A model generated the notes under the pieces. It searched no databases and was not told the DNA's origin. It saw only the letters and a list, made by a program, of their open reading frames with translations. Below are positions 3,483 through 59,886 of a DNA stretch of 64,000 nucleotides, one piece after another. Position 1 is the first letter of the stretch. Each line of letters starts with the position of its first letter. The DNA comes from a virus: the IMG/VR virus record IMGVR_UViG_3300036791_000458, positions 1 to 64,000 of that record. The stretch is one strand, 5' to 3'. The position numbers were made by a program, and so were the translations under genes.

Positions 3483-6422
3483 TTACCTCTTAAGTTTACC
3501 TCTTAGGCCACCTTGTGTGATTCTCCGTTGAATGTGTTTGTACACATAGTCGCCTATAACATCACCGTGAGTATCTAGCATACGACGAATACTTTGACTA
3601 TCAACCGCATTGATATTCAAGATAGGTTGAAAGGCGTTGCCTTCCCGACCACCACCACCAAACGTTTCGGAAAAGGTTCCACCTGACGCTGTCGCGAGTC
3701 CCGGAGTACCAGTCAACAAAGCCTGTAACGGTTGTGATATGTTTGCAGGTAGAACCATTTCATTCTGATGCACGAGCGCAAGTCCGGTTTTTGGTTGGAT
3801 ACCACCTTTTTCAAACGCGCCCACCGCCATTATAGCTGCGAAGGTTGCTGCCGCAGCAACTACGGCAAGTGGTGGAAACGCAGAAAGCGCGTCATAAGCT
3901 CTAGCTGCGCCAGACTTTGCAGACTTGAATACACTCTTCTCCGTGCTCTCAGTTTCGACTGCCTCTTTTTCTCCAGCAGCGACAGTGGTTGTAGTTACAC
4001 CTTCGCTCGCGGAAAAAGCATCCATAAAGGCAATACCTTGATTCTTAGCCGCGTTAGACGCGGTCTCAGTCGCGTCCGCTGTTTGTTTTGCAGTAACCAT
4101 CACACCTAAGTGTAGTTTTTGCGCTGCTTCCATGACGGTGTTAGAAGTCAAAAAACTCATGACCATTTTTTGAAGTGCTTTATCTATGATTGCGAGTAAG
4201 GTAGTACTCCACAAAGACGCGAGAGACTGCATGAACGTCTTTTGTCCGGTCAACCATTCGTTAGTTGCACTAGTAAACGAACTAGTTATAGCTTGCATCT
4301 GTTGATGCCACTTCATTGCCATTTGATTAGCTAACTGAGCAGATTCATTTACCCTACGACGCTCCATTACCGACATTTGATCTTGAGCTTTTTGGTACTG
4401 GGGACTGAATTCTCCATACACAGCCTTTATTTCATTGAGCTGAGCTTGTAAGGAAGCTTCCTCAGCAGCGTACCGTTCCTTAATGATAGCTACTTCCTCG
4501 TTGTACCATTGTAGTTGAGTTTCCCTTCCCATTGCTAACTTGAAAGTATTCTGTTGCTTATCGTAAGAAGCTGCTAAGTCAGCCATTTGCTTAGAAAAAG
4601 CCGCAGTCTCTTGTTCTATTACTTTACGATTTTGTTGACGAATCCTCTCGGCATTACTATCAATATCAGTTATTTCTTTCTGAGTTCTCATCTCCAGAAG
4701 TTTCTTATCAGAAGCAAACTTCTCATCAATCGCTGCTATTTTTTGCTGATCACCCGCAGCATTAGCTACCTCAAGGTTTCTAGTAGCTGTAAGAGCATCC
4801 AGTTCGACCTGTGCTCTGTCCTTCGCTTCAGCTTTAAGGTCTTCGGTCTCCTTTTCAAGAGTAATGTGATGAAGTTCGTAATCTTTTTTAGTCGCGTCTT
4901 CTGCTGCTGAAACCCGTGCTACCCCCTCTCTTTGAGCGTTACTAATTCTCTGCTTCTCCAATGCATCAGACGCATCAGATTCACGCTTTGCTTCCGCCGC
5001 ATCAAGAGCTTCGTTATCCGCAGCAGTCTTTTCTCTCGCTACCTTTTGTTGACTTTGTAATGAAGTTATAGCTGCTTTCCTATCGTTGTCACTAACACCC
5101 TGACGTTGTTTCTCTATACTAATCTTTTCATTTAAATACGTAATGTCAGCAGTCAACTTTTTGTTATTAATATCCTTTAGTTGAGTTACTTCCTGCTGAT
5201 TATTTGTATTGTGTAGAGCTAAAGATTGTTCCGCTTGCGCTTTCTCTCTAGCGAATTTCTCTTCATTTAAGGCATGAGACGCTGCCGCTGTCGCTTCATC
5301 TGATTTAAGTTTATCATTATTCTTAGTTATAAAGTTGGTAGTTGCTTCGTTTTCATCGTTCTTTACCGCGTTATGAGACTCGCCACTCAGCCTAGTTTCT
5401 TGTTGCCAAAGCCAGGCGCGCTTCTCAAAATGTCTATTATATTCATCTATCTCACCAGTCGGAAAACCTCTCCTAGCTATGTCATCCATTGCATCTTGTT
5501 CAAGAATTGTATTTCTGTGAATCTCTTGCCATGCCGCGTTATATCCAACAGCTGAATCTCTCATACGTATAATCGTACCGGACTCATCCTTCATAGGCTC
5601 ACCAGTCGGGCCAAGAACAGGTCTACCAGTCGGATGAGCTTCTTCAGCAGCGATTGCTTCTACCCGTGCTTTATTTGCCTCAGATTGAATGCGTTTAAAC
5701 ATTTCTTCTGGGCCTTCTTCTAAACCAAAATCCTGAAACGCCTTACTCACAGCAGTTTGATCATCGAGAAGTTGTTTCGTCGCCTCCTTTGAATAATTCA
5801 TTATCTTGTCAAAGCCCTCTTTAGAATTGTCACCAATATGTGCTAACTTATAATCCATCTCGGCGATTGGGCCTTTTGTAGCTCGGATCAGGGCTTCTTC
5901 TGTTTTTTCAGTTCCTTCTACTATTGAACGATCCAATTCAATAGCAGAAACTTTCAACGCATCCAAAGCTTCTTTATCAGCCTCGGCTTTATCTGCAAAC
6001 TCTTTTATTTTATCAATTGCTTTCCCTAATAGTTCGATTACTCCCAATATCGCAATAGGTGCAAACGCCGCAGCCATTAAAGGCGCGATACCTTCTATGC
6101 TACTAATAAAACGAGCGATCATTCTTGGAACATGAACACCCGTCATCTGTCCCAACTCACTGATCGCGTGAGTAGACTCAGTCATCTCAAGGCGAGTAGA
6201 CTTCAACTCACTTTCAAATTCCTTAGTAGCGTCACGACCCGAGTTCATTGCAGCCCTAGACTTTTGTCCCATGCTCTCTATTGCTGTAGTCAACTCTTTG
6301 ACGGACGCAGCCATTTGATTCATGGACGTTGCCATTATGGAAGGTGCGTCCGTACCAATAGCTTGCTTAAACTGAGATAAATCTGCGCCTAATGTAGTAG
6401 TAACTTTTAGATCGTCTGCCAT
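3483..6422 (-). CDS. Tape measure protein
   Basis: 979 aa, long Ala/Glu/Lys-rich helical sequence; C-term 'AFEKGG...LALVHQNEMVLPA'; follows the tail chaperones. Confidence 0.88.
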   Translation of the reverse strand: MADDLKVTTTLGADLSQFKQAIGTDAPSIMATSMNQMAASVKELTTAIESMGQKSRAAMNSGRDATKEFESELKSTRLEMTESTHAISELGQMTGVHVPRMIARFISSIEGIAPLMAAAFAPIAILGVIELLGKAIDKIKEFADKAEADKEALDALKVSAIELDRSIVEGTEKTEEALIRATKGPIAEMDYKLAHIGDNSKEGFDKIMNYSKEATKQLLDDQTAVSKAFQDFGLEEGPEEMFKRIQSEANKARVEAIAAEEAHPTGRPVLGPTGEPMKDESGTIIRMRDSAVGYNAAWQEIHRNTILEQDAMDDIARRGFPTGEIDEYNRHFEKRAWLWQQETRLSGESHNAVKNDENEATTNFITKNNDKLKSDEATAAASHALNEEKFAREKAQAEQSLALHNTNNQQEVTQLKDINNKKLTADITYLNEKISIEKQRQGVSDNDRKAAITSLQSQQKVAREKTAADNEALDAAEAKRESDASDALEKQRISNAQREGVARVSAAEDATKKDYELHHITLEKETEDLKAEAKDRAQVELDALTATRNLEVANAAGDQQKIAAIDEKFASDKKLLEMRTQKEITDIDSNAERIRQQNRKVIEQETAAFSKQMADLAASYDKQQNTFKLAMGRETQLQWYNEEVAIIKERYAAEEASLQAQLNEIKAVYGEFSPQYQKAQDQMSVMERRRVNESAQLANQMAMKWHQQMQAITSSFTSATNEWLTGQKTFMQSLASLWSTTLLAIIDKALQKMVMSFLTSNTVMEAAQKLHLGVMVTAKQTADATETASNAAKNQGIAFMDAFSASEGVTTTTVAAGEKEAVETESTEKSVFKSAKSGAARAYDALSAFPPLAVVAAAATFAAIMAVGAFEKGGIQPKTGLALVHQNEMVLPANISQPLQALLTGTPGLATASGGTFSETFGGGGREGNAFQPILNINAVDSQSIRRMLDTHGDVIGDYVYKHIQRRITQGGLRGKLKR

Positions 6423-54183: not shown

Positions 54184-55071
54184 CTATCCTATGGTTCCCT
54201 CTATAGTGTTCGGGTGATTCCCATTCCTACCTGTCCCGCCATTCCTCGTGGGATAGGTCTCATGTGGCACATTTCCATCAGTCAACTGGTGCACATTCAT
54301 CTGTCCGACATCACCATTGATAATCGCGTCTAGTACGTTGATAGTTACATTAGTTGGCTCCTGCTCTTCCTTAGGCATGAGTCTCTGCCACTTAGTCAAA
54401 AGAGTAAGCGCTTGAAGTTTGTCATGTAGTTTGAACTTAGTCCGCCTTACTTTGGTAAAAACTTTAACTCCATTGTTTACAATAGGTTCCCTCAACACTT
54501 CTTCCTCGCAGATAAGTTCTCCAATCGCAGCTGCTTGATTACGTGTGATATTTTGTAAATCAAATGACCATGATCCATCGGGATTGATCTGAATGTAATC
54601 GTACACATTGGAATAAGCGAGATTAGCGAGCTCTGATAGAGTCTTCTCAGCAGAAATTTCGAGGTGCCTAGACGCAACTTTAAGTACTCGATCTATCTCT
54701 TCTTTCACTCTGGGATTTTTCAGTAAGATAACCGAAACCTGCATAGGGTTCGAGTATCCTGCCTTCTGTGCCGCGGCTGTACCATTTAACTTGGGGTCTT
54801 CAACAAAGAACCGTACAAAAAGTGCTTGCCTAACGGTCAACTTACTTCCGGTAGCTCCACGTTTACCAAGCTTGATGAACTGATTGGAAATTTCCTGCTT
54901 TTTCTTGGTAGCTTTCGCAGTGGAATTCTGACGGGACTTCTTGGACTTCTCTCTTTTTTGGGGGGAGATAGGTTTTCCAGTCGAAAAGACTAAAGGTACA
55001 CGCGGGGGGACAGTCCTAACTTCTTGAGGCGTATTATCCATATAAACATTGGGGTGCCCATAACTAAACAT
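54184..55071 (-). CDS. terS: Terminase small subunit
   Basis: 'LT.RQ..FV..F....NGT.AA.KAGYS', 'LLKNP.V...I', 'L.EL..LA.SN', 'K.KLHDK..AL'. Confidence 0.88.
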   Translation of the reverse strand: MFSYGHPNVYMDNTPQEVRTVPPRVPLVFSTGKPISPQKREKSKKSRQNSTAKATKKKQEISNQFIKLGKRGATGSKLTVRQALFVRFFVEDPKLNGTAAAQKAGYSNPMQVSVILLKNPRVKEEIDRVLKVASRHLEISAEKTLSELANLAYSNVYDYIQINPDGSWSFDLQNITRNQAAAIGELICEEEVLREPIVNNGVKVFTKVRRTKFKLHDKLQALTLLTKWQRLMPKEEQEPTNVTINVLDAIINGDVGQMNVHQLTDGNVPHETYPTRNGGTGRNGNHPNTIEGTIG

Positions 55072-55162: not shown

Positions 55163-55232
55163 GGGCGAGGGAAGTTATTAGGTAAATAAATTACCTTAGA
55201 CAGCATGAATGGATTCTAACTTTTTAAAATAT

Positions 55233-56493
55233 AGCTCAGACTCAGACTGTGACTATGACTTAAACTTTGACTGTAGCCGTCTTTGACTCCGACTTAGACC
55301 TTGTCCATGACTTCGACTGTAGCTTACGAACGTCTTTGGAACTCTATGACTTTGACCACGACCTTGCCTTCGACTGTGGCTACTGAGACTTTGGCATTGA
55401 AAAGGACTCGGCCTTTGACTGCGACTACGATTACGACTTCTTCAACTTCGACTTAGGCATCAACCGTGACTTTAACCTTGACTCCGGCTTCTAAGACTAT
55501 GCCTAAACAGGGACTCAAGCTATGACTGAGACTCCGTCTTCTTTGACTTCAACTACGACACCGACTTCGACACCAGCTATGGCCAAGTCCTTGACTTTAA
55601 CCTTGACTCCGGCCTCTGTGACTTAAACACTGCCTGGGACTACGACTTCAACTGTAGCTTCTACGACTTCGACATAGATATCGCCTTCGACTCTGCCTAG
55701 AACGTTGACTATGGCCTCTTTGACTAGAACATTGACCTCGTCTGTAACTCTGACTTCGGCACTCTTCGTCTACGGCAATGACCGGGTCTATAGCTGCGAC
55801 TCCAACTTCGGCTTCTTCGTCTTCAACCTAGACTGGGACTACGACTTCAACTGCGACTTCTTAGACTCAAACTTAAACATCGGCTATAACTCAAACTTTG
55901 ACACGGACTCAAGCGATTATGACTATGGCCGTGACTTGGACTCAGACTCCTGAGACTGCGACTTCGTCTACGGCAATGACTATAACTGTGCCTTGGACTT
56001 CGACTTCAGCTTCTGTGACTACGACACCGACTTTGTCCATAACTTTGACCGTGATTTATAACTAGACTACAACTCCGACTTTGACATTGCCCATGACCTT
56101 GACTACGACAGAAGACTACAGCTTCTGAGACTCGGACTGGGACTTCGTCTAAAACTCAAACTCTGACAGCGGCTGTGACCATGACTTTAACTGAGACTGT
56201 AGCTTCTCGGACTTAGACACAAACTTAGACCTCGCCCATGACAATAACCATGACTTCAACTGCGACTGTGACTCCAGCTTCTGCGACTAGGACATAAACC
56301 ACGACTTCATCTTAGACCGGGACTGCGGCTAGCTTCGACACGAGCTTTGACTTAGCCCACGACTATGCTTCAACTTTTTACGCGTAGACTTTGACTTGGC
56401 TTCAACTTAGTCATTGACTATGGCTTCTGTGACTAGGACTGTGACTGAATCATTGACACCGACTACGGCTTCTGAGACTATGACGTAAACTTC
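55233..56493 (-). repeat. Main hexamer-periodic array (+ strand consensus GACTNN; - strand AGTC-NN) punctuated into 6n+3-nt units; candidate guide-RNA array
   Basis: About 200 hexamers with near-invariant C at position 3 and free positions 5-6; recurrent 9-nt punctuation RGC TTC TNN; stop codons in all frames. Confidence 0.85.
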
Positions 56494-56644
56494 ACTTCGA
56501 TTCTACTTGCCTATTGTCTGCAAGAAGTAATAACGCTTCAAGTTCAAACTGCAATTTTAGTGTATCCGTGCCATCAACATCCTCACCATTCTTCTTACGA
56601 AGCAATTCCAAAAGATGTCGGGTTGCAGTAAAATCCATGATCAT
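56492..56644 (-). CDS. 50-aa hypothetical protein embedded between array segments (not in the ORF track)
   Basis: MIMDFTATRHLLELLRKKNGEDVDGTDTLKLQFELEALLLLADNRQVESK*, with SD GGAG upstream. Confidence 0.6.
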   Translation of the reverse strand: MIMDFTATRHLLELLRKKNGEDVDGTDTLKLQFELEALLLLADNRQVESK

Positions 56645-56657
56645 TTAGCTACTCCAA

Positions 56658-56840
56658 TACTTTGACAGTGACTTAATCATAAGCACCGACATGGACTACG
56701 ACTGTGGCTTCTATGACTCAGTCATGGACTCGAACTAGGACTGTGGCAGCAACTTCAACCTTGACTATGACTCCGGCTTCTTCGACTTTGATCAAGGCTA
56801 TAACTTCAACCTAGACTGCGGCATCGGCTTCTTTGACTTC
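56658..56840 (-). repeat. Second hexamer-periodic array segment
   Basis: Same grammar; GGC TTC T punctuation at 56706, 56775, 56826 (spacing 69, 51). Confidence 0.8.
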
Positions 56841-57077
56841 GGGTTCATCAGGTTCATCGGTGAGAGTGACCTTGAAATATTCGCCACCTATCGAAAACAC
56901 ACGAGCGATATGTGATTCTTCTTCTGAAAGTGGTCTCCCAACTTCAATGCTAATGACAGGAGAAAAACCCTCGCTATAATCCGTTGCTTCCTTCACAAAA
57001 ACATCAAAATCGTTTTCCTCAAGATCATTACCTTCGAGCGGTATTTCAATCAAAAGTTTTTTCAAGTTTGCCTCCAT
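56811..57077 (-). CDS. Acidic hypothetical protein (88 aa); C-terminus runs into the array
   Basis: Clean ORF, D/E-rich. Confidence 0.6.
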   Translation of the reverse strand: MEANLKKLLIEIPLEGNDLEENDFDVFVKEATDYSEGFSPVISIEVGRPLSEEESHIARVFSIGGEYFKVTLTDEPDEPEVKEADAAV

Positions 57078-57084
57078 TTTCTTT

Positions 57085-57205
57085 ATCTTTGACTAAAACT
57101 GCGACTGAAACTGTGACTTAGACTCCGGCTTCTTCGACTGAAACTCGAACTCTGACACGAACCGTGACTTTGACTCAGGCTTCTTCGACTTTGGCTATGA
57201 CTTAG
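57085..57205 (-). repeat. Third hexamer-periodic array segment
   Basis: GACTNN/AACTNN hexamers; GGC TTC TTC punctuation at 57127 and 57178 (spacing 51). Confidence 0.8.
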
Positions 57206-57214
57206 CTAAGGCGG

Positions 57215-58291
57215 TTACTGAATTTCTAAAATGGTCAAGTGCACCATCTGTCCGCTCATCTCCACCACTTCACCAACGTATTGCTTCGAGGTTAGTCCGA
57301 AGATTGCGACATGTGGCTCACCATTTGATGGTTTGTGCTCATAGATGAGATTGGTTTTAAAATCCATCGTCAGAACTTTTTTGACGGCCTCAACCGCGTG
57401 CTCGGGTTTGTACTCGAACACATTGGTTTTGTCTTCCCCTCTCAATAGTTCTGTGCCCATACGTTTGACCGCGTCTTTGTGGAGTGCTTCCCATGACAAC
57501 GGCACATCGAACAATTCGATAGTCTTGCACCCGGTGTAGGTAATCAGTGACAACCCACACTGGTTTTCATGCAGGCGTGCCTTGGAAAGAATGTCATCGA
57601 AGTTCTGCGAGAAAGCATCGAAGTTATCCTTGAGATTATCCTGTCTAAAAGAAGAAAGAGGCGGCTGTTCCTCGGGAATTGATACTGACGAACCGAATAT
57701 TCCGCTAGAACGAGATGTGAATGTACGACGAACACCCGGAACACGTCCGGAGATATCCGCGCTCACTCTTTCACCACCCATCATGGCGTTCATGGTTGTA
57801 GTGGTTTTGGTTACGTTCTCCCAAACCGTATGTTGATCTGCTGGAGTGAACCCCGCTGTGTAGCTCGCGTTCTCAACCGCAATTGGAACGGTGCCACCGT
57901 ACTTGAAATTGCTTCCAGTACGAATACCATGACTCGCGTGAACACACCGAGCATCAAGCGCAACCTCAGAGTTAGGAAACAACACCGCGCTTCTGGTAAT
58001 GATTCTGGACTGGGTTCCCTTGCCTTCGAAGATGGTTCCGGAGCGAAGGAAGACGTTTTCTTTCCCAGTGTTTTTGATATTGATTTTGTTGATCATGCCA
58101 CTGTCCGTAACAATGACGTTTTCTGTCTCTGGCATGGTGACATACTGACGGACAAAAGTGGTTTCCCGAAGGATTGGAAGGATACAAGCTAAGGATTTCT
58201 CGGATGGACGATCTGGTTTTCCGAATGAGAAACCCAACTTCTCTTCTGCTACTGCAAGAAGAACTGCCTCTTTGCTAAGAGTTTTAGCCAT
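57215..58291 (-). CDS. ARPP-1 (DUF6569)-like domain protein
   Basis: 'I.IKNTG...VFL..G.IF.G...Q.R', 'CV', 'Q..VW..V', 'NQCG', 'IELFD' pattern; SD AGGAG before ATG 58291. Confidence 0.65.
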   Translation of the reverse strand: MAKTLSKEAVLLAVAEEKLGFSFGKPDRPSEKSLACILPILRETTFVRQYVTMPETENVIVTDSGMINKINIKNTGKENVFLRSGTIFEGKGTQSRIITRSAVLFPNSEVALDARCVHASHGIRTGSNFKYGGTVPIAVENASYTAGFTPADQHTVWENVTKTTTTMNAMMGGERVSADISGRVPGVRRTFTSRSSGIFGSSVSIPEEQPPLSSFRQDNLKDNFDAFSQNFDDILSKARLHENQCGLSLITYTGCKTIELFDVPLSWEALHKDAVKRMGTELLRGEDKTNVFEYKPEHAVEAVKKVLTMDFKTNLIYEHKPSNGEPHVAIFGLTSKQYVGEVVEMSGQMVHLTILEIQ

Positions 58292-58347
58292 GTGGTACTC
58301 CTTTTGTTCACGGATTCTTCCGTGTATACACATGTGTACTACCTAAC

Positions 58348-59028: not shown

Positions 59029-59076
59029 TACTTCGACTTAGGCGGCGTCGTAGTCTGAGCCTGTGACCGTGACTTA
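59029..59076 (-). repeat. Isolated 8-hexamer unit of the periodic array next to the RAMP-gene terminator
   Basis: TACTTC GACTTA GGCGGC GTCGTA GTCTGA GCCTGT GACCGT GACTTA: C at position 3 in all eight hexamers. Confidence 0.65.
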
Positions 59077-59114
59077 AAAAAATGGACTACTCCCCAACGA
59101 CAGAGAGTAGTCCC
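59076..59114 (-). terminator. Rho-independent terminator downstream of the RAMP-like gene
   Basis: 9-bp stem GGACTACTC/GAGTAGTCC (59084-59092 / 59105-59113) followed on the - strand by ATTTTTTT. Confidence 0.75.
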
Positions 59115-59172: not shown

Positions 59173-59886
59173 TTATTCTGCTTCTGCTTTTTCTTCGCCT
59201 TCAACTTCTTCGTCGTCTTCTGGAACGGTGACCTTTGCTTTCTTGGGCGCGGGAGTCAGATAGTCCCAACCCGCGACTTGGAACCGTCCATACCCTTGAG
59301 GACGAGCAGAACCGATACCAATCTGTTTCCCGCCCCATTCGATCAGCTTCTTCAAATCGTCGGGCAGGATGATTTCCTCATCAACAGAGAACACGCCCCG
59401 GGCAATGAAGTCATCGATGTAGAAACTGGAGCACCAGTTCCGCTGGTTGGACGTTTCCATTTTGACGAAACGTTCAAAGAGCTTCGCGTCAGCGACAGTC
59501 TTCTCGGTGACCATCATTTTGTCCGCTATCTTGACACCGATGAACGTCAAACCCTTGTCAGACACACGCGGAATCGCTTTCGGCGCTTGCATCGACGCAT
59601 TGTTGATGAAACTCTGAATGATTCGTTCCGGGATTGCGATCAGACCTTCACGCGTGCCGTCCACGGTGTAGAAGGGACGTTCTGCTTTTTTCTGCATGTC
59701 TTCGTAGTTCTCTTTGGTGAGACCACGTTTTTCGAGCGCAGCGAGCAGAGCCTGCTCTTTTTTGCTCGCGCCCAGTTTGGGGTGAACGTCTTTGCTGATG
59801 TCGATGATTGTATTACGCTCGGGCCAGTAAGGCAATCCGATGTAACCGGAACCATTGAAGTTAAACGCGACTTGAACTTTAACCAT
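59173..59886 (-). CDS. Stand-alone Cas7/RAMP-superfamily-like protein
   Basis: 'IAIPERIIQSFI' (cf. RAMP 'IPGSS.KG'), helix 'LKKLIEWGG', then G-rich loop 'GIGSARPQGYGRFQV', acidic tail; SD GGAG; no other cas genes in the window. Confidence 0.72.
   Translation of the reverse strand: MVKVQVAFNFNGSGYIGLPYWPERNTIIDISKDVHPKLGASKKEQALLAALEKRGLTKENYEDMQKKAERPFYTVDGTREGLIAIPERIIQSFINNASMQAPKAIPRVSDKGLTFIGVKIADKMMVTEKTVADAKLFERFVKMETSNQRNWCSSFYIDDFIARGVFSVDEEIILPDDLKKLIEWGGKQIGIGSARPQGYGRFQVAGWDYLTPAPKKAKVTVPEDDEEVEGEEKAEAE

Follow-up and report, generated by a model that had tools for sequence, protein, structure and literature searches.

What is the function of a phage DNA tract that is built almost wholly of six-base units and is thrown out of phase, again and again, by three bases? 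The question is raised by the phage record IMGVR_UViG_3300036791_000458 of IMG/VR. The window analyzed here (64,000 nt) is the first 64 kb of this 76.5-kb record, in which the terminase genes terS and terL are present, as befits a phage. All of the window's long genes lie on the minus strand. The tract fills a gap of about 2 kb, which is bounded by an ARPP-1-like gene (57215-58333) and, on the other side, by the gene for the small terminase (54184-55071). In this report, we conclude from sequence comparison, and by analogy with a described system, that the tract is probably the array of guide RNAs (vrRNA-like) of a VIPR-type system whose repeat unit has six bases. It is most likely best filed as a hexanucleotide version of VIPR, a system whose published repeats all have five bases.

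VIPR (Viral Interference Programmable Repeat) was first described in preprints of 2026 (10.64898/2026.04.26.720920; 10.64898/2026.04.26.720927; PDB 36pp). A phage-borne protein, Vipr, polymerizes on a vrRNA of 9-16 YNNGG pentamers, with one protomer per repeat (10.64898/2026.04.26.720920). According to the same 2026 preprints, Vipr sequesters GGY and presents the NN dinucleotides, which read double-stranded DNA with a one-base skip; competing phages or satellites are silenced in this way. The system has been described as a minimal-RAMP pentanucleotide code that may pre-date CRISPR. All seven published types are described as pentanucleotide, and a later periodicity screen reported VIPR arrays of 5 nt only. 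The logic of the array in our window is already explained by this known family, which was not named in the preliminary description of the locus; the feature itself is real and rare.

A hexanucleotide array with three-base punctuation

On the minus strand, which we take as the RNA sense, positions 55226-57215 form a tract of about 250 NNAGYC hexamers. Exact GACT occurs 99 times on the plus strand between 55150 and 57260, against 1-10 times per kb in the rest of the window, and the spacings between successive copies are 0 mod 6 in 66 of 98 cases and 3 mod 6 in another 23. A parse by dynamic programming resolves the tract into 251 hexamers, interrupted by 30 steps of three bases and 13 slips of one or two. 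The preliminary description had proposed a position-specific examination by hexamer phase; it yields two low-information positions, N1 and N2 (0.14 bits each), and four fixed ones, A (0.78 bits), G (1.59), Y (0.72) and C (1.00), where the values at the fixed positions are somewhat inflated because the parse was scored on the motif itself.

In the RNA sense, the boundary between units is the 9-nt element NNA-GAAGCC, which shifts the six-base phase by 3 nt about 30 times. The tract can therefore be written as some 25 non-identical units of the form [NNA] GAAGCY (NNAGYC)n, with 3-16 hexamers per unit (median 8). The preliminary description had listed 24 positions of a recurring plus-strand element, RGCTTCTNN or a degenerate version of it, mostly spaced by 6n+3 nt. 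All 24 are present, 14 of them as exact RGCTTCT, and 17 of the 23 intervals are 3 mod 6; of all exact heptamers in the genome, 14 fall within the 2-kb array and 16 in the remaining 74.5 kb. Two further statements of that description also stood: the units are all different, with a highest copy-to-copy identity of about 75%, and the hexamers that flank the punctuation are nearer to the consensus, a perfect AGTC being found in 61% of those after the head and 65% of those that end a unit, but in 31% of those in mid-unit.

The array contains only 6-nt units and the 9-nt boundary; direct repeats of about 23-50 nt with contiguous spacers were not found in it. When folded, its RNA is no more structured than shuffled sequences (z 0 to +0.7), as expected of a repeat tract that is held by protein.

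Arrays of the same grammar accompany one gene family

A scan of metagenome contigs for the boundary pattern uncovered arrays on contigs that we denote L318/L258, L296, L262, L293 and L338, and a protein-based scan located one in a sister phage (G001, or L126). These six other lineages share the array grammar with the window, making seven in all. The relatives' arrays are non-coding and have the same NNAGYC unit and a GAAGCC head (GAGGCC in L262). Across the seven lineages, the NN positions carry 0.06-0.4 bits and the A, G, Y and C positions 0.3-2.0 bits. Canonical hexamers beside the boundaries and weaker ones in mid-unit are likewise seen in the relatives. In the better-kept arrays, the median number of hexamers per putative unit is 7-10. 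Given its conservation across lineages, the punctuation is, at the level of sequence, a marker of unit boundaries. Its AGAAGC core may act as a cleavage site, a filament stop or both.

A single gene is common to the seven array loci at the level of BLASTP: that for a RAMP protein, which in the window has 237 amino acids. In L318/L258, L296, L262, L293 and L338, the array begins at or just past the stop codon of a gene for a protein of 190-219 amino acids, on the same strand, and these proteins are 54-61% identical to that of the window. Over all of the array loci, the identity of the homologs to the window protein is 54-91%. The sister phage has a similar array at the same place, with flanking genes of 83-88% DNA identity, and a different block of seven hexamers right at the stop of its own vipr-like gene.

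Around these loci, little else recurs. We found no cas genes beyond the lone RAMP gene in the window or the compared loci, and neither the RAMP protein nor the scanned neighbors matched a defense family, save for a weak match to mad1 (E 0.0013) by a 154-aa upstream open reading frame (ORF). No GenBank phage matched the locus, either by DNA or by tblastn. In both the window and L318, small genes with a weak likeness to HTH_17 are found close to the locus. The ARPP-1-like gene was considered as a partner of the array and rejected, a 61%-identical homolog being present in L128 with no array or vipr-like gene nearby. In the window phage and its sister, an ARPP-1-domain gene intervenes between the vipr-like gene and the main array. 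The sister phage has, on the opposite strand between its array and terS, an extra 227-aa ORF (L126:13068-13751) with a CxxCxxCC zinc/iron-chelating domain (PF03692, E 1.6e-4), of which the window phage has no counterpart.

No Rfam family was detected in or adjoining the window array or those of its relatives. Two intergenic stretches of L296 (6841-6901 and 5941-6037), which lie 1.2-2.2 kb upstream of the vipr-like gene and away from the hexamer array, gave a Hammerhead_II-like match (35.8 bits, where the gathering score is 37) and one like twister-P5 (29.6 bits). Loose hexamer patterns searched in IMG/VR returned mostly coding repeats; those of L108, (SPSL)n, L072, (SQ)n, and L067, of GDGL type, are unrelated look-alikes. 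The first of these belongs to a 140-kb phage contig on which AGTC-rich hexamers (L108:6284-8776) encode a genuine protein of 830 aa that contains an extended (SPSL/SPSI)n stretch.

The linked protein is a predicted homolog of Vipr

The 237-aa protein has a predicted fold like that of Cas7/Csm3, with a helical bundle, a thumb hairpin and a C-terminal glycine-rich loop, or G-loop GIGSARPQGYGRF. An AlphaFold2 (AF2) model calculated from a 38-sequence alignment has a pLDDT of 84. The top Foldseek matches listed for this model in the PDB are all Csm3, Cmr4, type VII Cas7 or Cas7-11 (E 1e-6 to 1e-4), and BFVD contains viral RAMP-like matches. When a profile of 38 family members was compared to 177,635 PDB sequences, there was a single match, the Vipr protein of Escherichia phage SUSP1 (36pp_D, E 6e-5), and the alignment runs from the final helix through the glycine-rich loop to the final strand. 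The family was counted as 97 clusters at 90% identity and, at 50% identity, as 259; it received no assignment from Pfam, PHROG-function or PADLOC. Judged by its profile and its modeled structure, the 237-aa protein is a Vipr/Cas7-type RAMP homologous to SUSP1 Vipr.

The region that matches SUSP1 Vipr includes its base-reading residues, D177 and W178 (10.64898/2026.04.26.720927). In the 237-aa family, these align with S and A, and the G-loop is one residue longer. The longer loop is present in 43 of the 44 relatives with a detectable motif. In the wider family, the loop is nearly always GxG-(A/S)(S/A/C)R(K/P)(M/Q)G(W/Y/F)-GRF, with seven residues separating the pairs of glycines; the six-residue RPR-FGRF form, as in SUSP1 Vipr, was found in one member. 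The longer, altered loop would fit a different and longer fixed motif in the RNA, and we infer a link between loop length and unit length.

The variable dinucleotides behave like spacers

The preliminary description had looked to related phages as a means of assessing its proposal, and the sister phage permits the comparison. Five units are common to the two arrays; they are scattered, and their order is not kept. With head hexamers excluded, all 62 of 62 NN bases of these units are identical, as are 94 of 124 scaffold bases (Fisher p 2e-6), a test that is biased upward since the unit pairs were picked by their NN match, although the pairs still exceed a shuffled null (an observed excess of 6-8 against a maximum of 5 with shuffled order). 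Within the scaffold, matches number 21/31 at hexamer position 3, 30/31 at position 4, 19/31 at position 5 and 24/31 at position 6. The opposite pattern is found in segment A of the array, which is syntenic with the beginning of the sister's array and shares its register. In this first block, near the ARPP-1-like gene, scaffold and heads are kept at 10-16 of 16 per position, and the two NN positions at 5/16 and 7/16, which is near random.

The dinucleotides are thus kept in shared units and replaced in the syntenic block, and the information of the array therefore sits in NN. To be kept or replaced wholesale is, as far as these alignments go, spacer-like behavior. Together with the gene linkage and the homology to Vipr, this comparison upholds the view of the preliminary description: the tract is not a homogenized satellite, and its roughly 25 units, each different and guide-like, form an array comparable to that of CRISPR. 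We had also noted that the composition of NN resembles that of the first two codon positions on the sense strand (r 0.81); this was dropped as evidence, given that base composition explains it and the residual (r 0.23) is not significant.

A very different explanation, that the array is an ORF, since decayed or recoded, for a repeat protein of low complexity (of Val-X, or Ser-Arg/Ser-Pro type), has some features in its favor: 89 of the 98 GACT spacings are multiples of 3, the AGT-CNN frame of L262 is open for 339 aa, the unrelated phage of L108 truly encodes (SPSL)n from such hexamers, and the variation of the scaffold is highest at hexamer positions 3, 5 and 6, of which 3 and 6 are wobble sites in an NNA-GTC frame. 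This explanation, which the preliminary description had itself named as one that could overturn its proposal, fares poorly. Stops occur in all six frames of the window tract, with all three stop codons in the main frame, and in most of the relatives too: in our reading, the L296 tract has stops in all three sense frames, and the arrays of L126 and L318 are not spanned by a long sense-strand ORF. Hexamers starting with TA or TG are not avoided (14%, with 12.5% expected), and position 3 is A in 59-100% of hexamers, which is beyond any codon usage. Further, the non-coding grammar persists where the linked proteins are only 54-61% identical to that of the window. That a frame stays open in L262 follows from how well the AGT-CNN register is kept there. 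A decayed ORF is accordingly extremely improbable. In L262 (673-1692), the regular array leaves this Ser/Arg-rich frame open over its 339 codons, and gene callers would report a spurious protein there.

Layout of the locus

The elements of the locus, all on the minus strand, are as follows.

59173..59886, minus: vipr-like gene, encoding the 237-aa minimal RAMP as predicted by AF2 model, Foldseek and family profile
59084..59113, minus: hairpin like an intrinsic terminator, with a 13-bp stem and a T run, just 3' of the vipr-like gene
59029..59076, minus: lone degenerate unit of 8 hexamers, directly 3' of the terminator
57215-58333, minus: ARPP-1-like gene (PF20208, E 7e-21)
57078..57215, minus: array segment A, about 3 units, beginning at the stop of the ARPP-1-like gene
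56811..57077, minus: acidic 88-aa ORF within the array, absent from the sister phage and with no family match
56645..56850, minus: array segment B, about 3 units, overlapping the final codons of the 88-aa ORF
56492..56644, minus: 50-aa ORF within the array, with a 54-aa counterpart in the sister phage and no family match
55226..56495, minus: array segment C, the main tract, about 20 units of [NNA] GAAGCY (NNAGYC)n; its end lies some 150 nt upstream of terS
54184-55071, minus: small terminase gene terS (PF03592)

The two small embedded ORFs are the sole gene-strand ORFs of more than 40 aa between the ARPP-1-like gene and terS. Between the vipr-like gene and the main array there are four ORFs of at least 40 aa, including one of 108 aa and the ARPP-1-like gene. 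Hairpins that resemble the window's terminator stand between gene and array in L318 and L338.

The position of the array next to terS suggests another possibility, namely that it acts as DNA, either as an extended pac (packaging-initiation) site for the small terminase or as centromere-like direct repeats. That the array ends about 150 nt upstream of terS in both the window phage and its sister, that the repeats all point one way and that terminator-like hairpins flank the relatives' arrays would all suit such a site. In L318, L296, L262 and L338, however, the array adjoins the RAMP gene and not a terminase gene; a period of 6 bp, shifted in steps of 3 bp, is out of keeping with the helical repeat of DNA; and the partner protein, a homolog of Vipr, has a predicted RNA-binding RAMP fold. 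We therefore regard a DNA-level role as very unlikely.

Comparison to known systems and a proposed mechanism

The closest of the described systems is the type II VIPR of phage SUSP1. Both consist of a phage-borne, single small RAMP of about 200 aa with an RRM core, a helical bundle, a thumb and a G-loop, and both have non-coding repeats in tandem, a fixed motif alternating with hypervariable NN. The units, putative in the window, hold about 7-16 repeats in both, several units are arrayed downstream of the gene, and neither has cas genes or CRISPR repeats. This likeness is drawn from sequence and predicted structure, and the binding mode and target rule of the window system are putative. The two systems differ in the number of guides, SUSP1 having 4 vrRNAs and the window about 25 units in 2 kb; in the reading residues, D177/W178 in SUSP1 and S/A in the window family; in the G-loop, which has one more residue in the window family; and in the ends of the units. 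A SUSP1 vrRNA carries a structured tail or pseudoknot of about 40 nt, whereas the units in the window abut, with only NNA-GAAGCC between them.

The nearest known layout is that of the staggered VIPR arrays outlined in legend S18 of one preprint (10.64898/2026.04.26.720920). As far as that legend describes them, these arrays also have contiguous units without tails or ribozymes, and boundaries defined by register; they are pentanucleotide, with 1-nt overlaps such that one vrRNA ends as the next begins, whereas the window has a 3-nt half-unit step and a GAAGCC head. Among the non-canonical VIPR arrays (GAC/NN, CAC/NN, WGT/NN and TGH/NN; NNNGG, YNNNG and NNNNG), the fixed motif varies by Vipr clade and the NN logic is constant (10.64898/2026.10.21.760802; 10.64898/2026.04.26.720920). 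All of them are 5-mers, unlike the 6-mers of the window.

The best structural matches to the 237-aa protein come from the backbone filaments of Class 1 CRISPR systems (Csm3, Cmr4 or Cas7 on crRNA), with which the array also shares a 6-nt period. One protomer per 6 nt of RNA is a hallmark of Cas7 filaments. The likeness does not extend to the guides or the locus. Spacers in crRNA are contiguous and have no fixed bases, unlike the NNAGYC units, and Cas7 is accompanied by Cas5, Cas6, Cas10 or Cas8 and an array with 23-50-nt repeats, none of which is present at the window locus.

By analogy with the solved Vipr-vrRNA filament of SUSP1, we propose that the array is transcribed on the minus strand and that each hexamer would be bound by one 237-aa protomer, with the fixed AGYC sequestered. 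The NN dinucleotides would be presented, and their joint reading of a DNA target with gaps would silence the competing phage or other mobile element that carries it. The 3-nt half-unit step with its GAAGCC would break the register in which neighboring protomers jointly hold the fixed motifs and, because of this break, would delimit one filament or processed RNA from the next. The punctuation may thus do what a structured 3' tail does in the published vrRNAs.

Beyond this assignment, we lean slightly toward the idea that the window represents a distinct VIPR-like class with a code of its own, marked by a six-base protomer footprint (four bases sequestered and two read), as for Cas7 on crRNA, by tail-less guides that are delimited only by a half-unit phase step, and by dozens of guides per array. 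The six-base clade is set apart here from published VIPR, of which the VIPR paper has 667 loci, by the descriptions of the latter.

Targets, expression and the weight of contrary evidence

Target scans of IMG/VR were made with two exact seeds of nine dinucleotides following the rule of a 1-nt skip. The sole hit was at L391:4345-4373 (IMGVR_UViG_3300029305_004042), where 23 of 26 NN bases match the guide, a 13-hexamer unit of segment C. The match lies antisense within a 67-aa gene for a Cro/CI-type helix-turn-helix (HTH) protein (4308-4511, minus strand; HTH_3, E 3e-19), with the skipped base at the wobble position. No other guides converge on the L391 contig. This match is statistically indistinguishable from a chance seed hit, and we treat it only as a lead. 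Cro/CI-type HTH genes such as that of L391 are a class targeted by published VIPR systems.

Several facts weigh against a VIPR-type guide array. The unit of SUSP1 VIPR has 5 nt (NN plus GGY) and that of the window 6 nt (NN plus AGYC, with four fixed bases). Published vrRNAs are capped, by a structured 3' tail in type II and by ribozymes between vrRNAs in types I and V; folding and Rfam searches disclosed neither a structured 3' tail nor inter-unit ribozymes here, the units being parted by NNA-GAAGCC alone. At the level of BLASTP, no conserved accessory (vap) gene stands beside the vipr-like gene in the seven lineages. The main array is 2 kb from that gene in the window, beyond a strong terminator and three other genes, and its transcription therefore requires another promoter or read-through. 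No RNA sequencing run is listed for the locus; the sole run is the probable source, a soil metagenome. A search for targets in the genomes of the window phage and its sister, with skips of 0-4 nt, gave no excess over shuffled guides, and a degenerate-peptide search for targets in Vipr-family proteins gave no signal. In the IMG/VR scans, the one hit of the first guide is about the chance number for a 36-bit pattern, and the second guide had none. The upward bias of the NN-conservation test, given above, belongs on the same side.

Some of these facts would also be accommodated if the array RNA were a decoy or sponge, soaking up or redirecting the Vipr-type protein of a competitor or a Cas7-family protein of the host. 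There is a precedent, in that solo vrRNAs encoded by satellites of SUSP1 redirect the phage VIPR (10.64898/2026.10.15.759431). Such a role would agree with the failure of the scans to find a target, the very large size of the array and its separation from the vipr-like gene in the window phage. In all seven lineages, however, the array is linked to its cognate gene. Moreover, a sponge needs only the scaffold that the protein binds, and in the shared units it is NN that is perfectly conserved and the scaffold that drifts, the opposite of this need. We thus deem a decoy unlikely, and continue to favor a guide array read by its own Vipr-type protein.

Implications for VIPR and CRISPR

The tail-less, phase-punctuated array, with about 25 guides in 2 kb, is an example of array compaction. 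At least one published periodicity screen threw out periods that are multiples of 3, and the hexamer class may therefore be systematically under-counted.

If the hexanucleotide clade is true, it would show that the code's repeat length and the G-loop are able to evolve together, and a second geometry would become available for structural and engineering work. If the window does represent a distinct class, the rule for target spacing may differ from the 1-nt skip, and the class could be a geometry intermediate between pentanucleotide VIPR and the backbones of Class 1 CRISPR systems. A VIPR-type protein on the 6-nt footprint of Cas7 would, if confirmed, bear on the proposed transition from VIPR to CRISPR.

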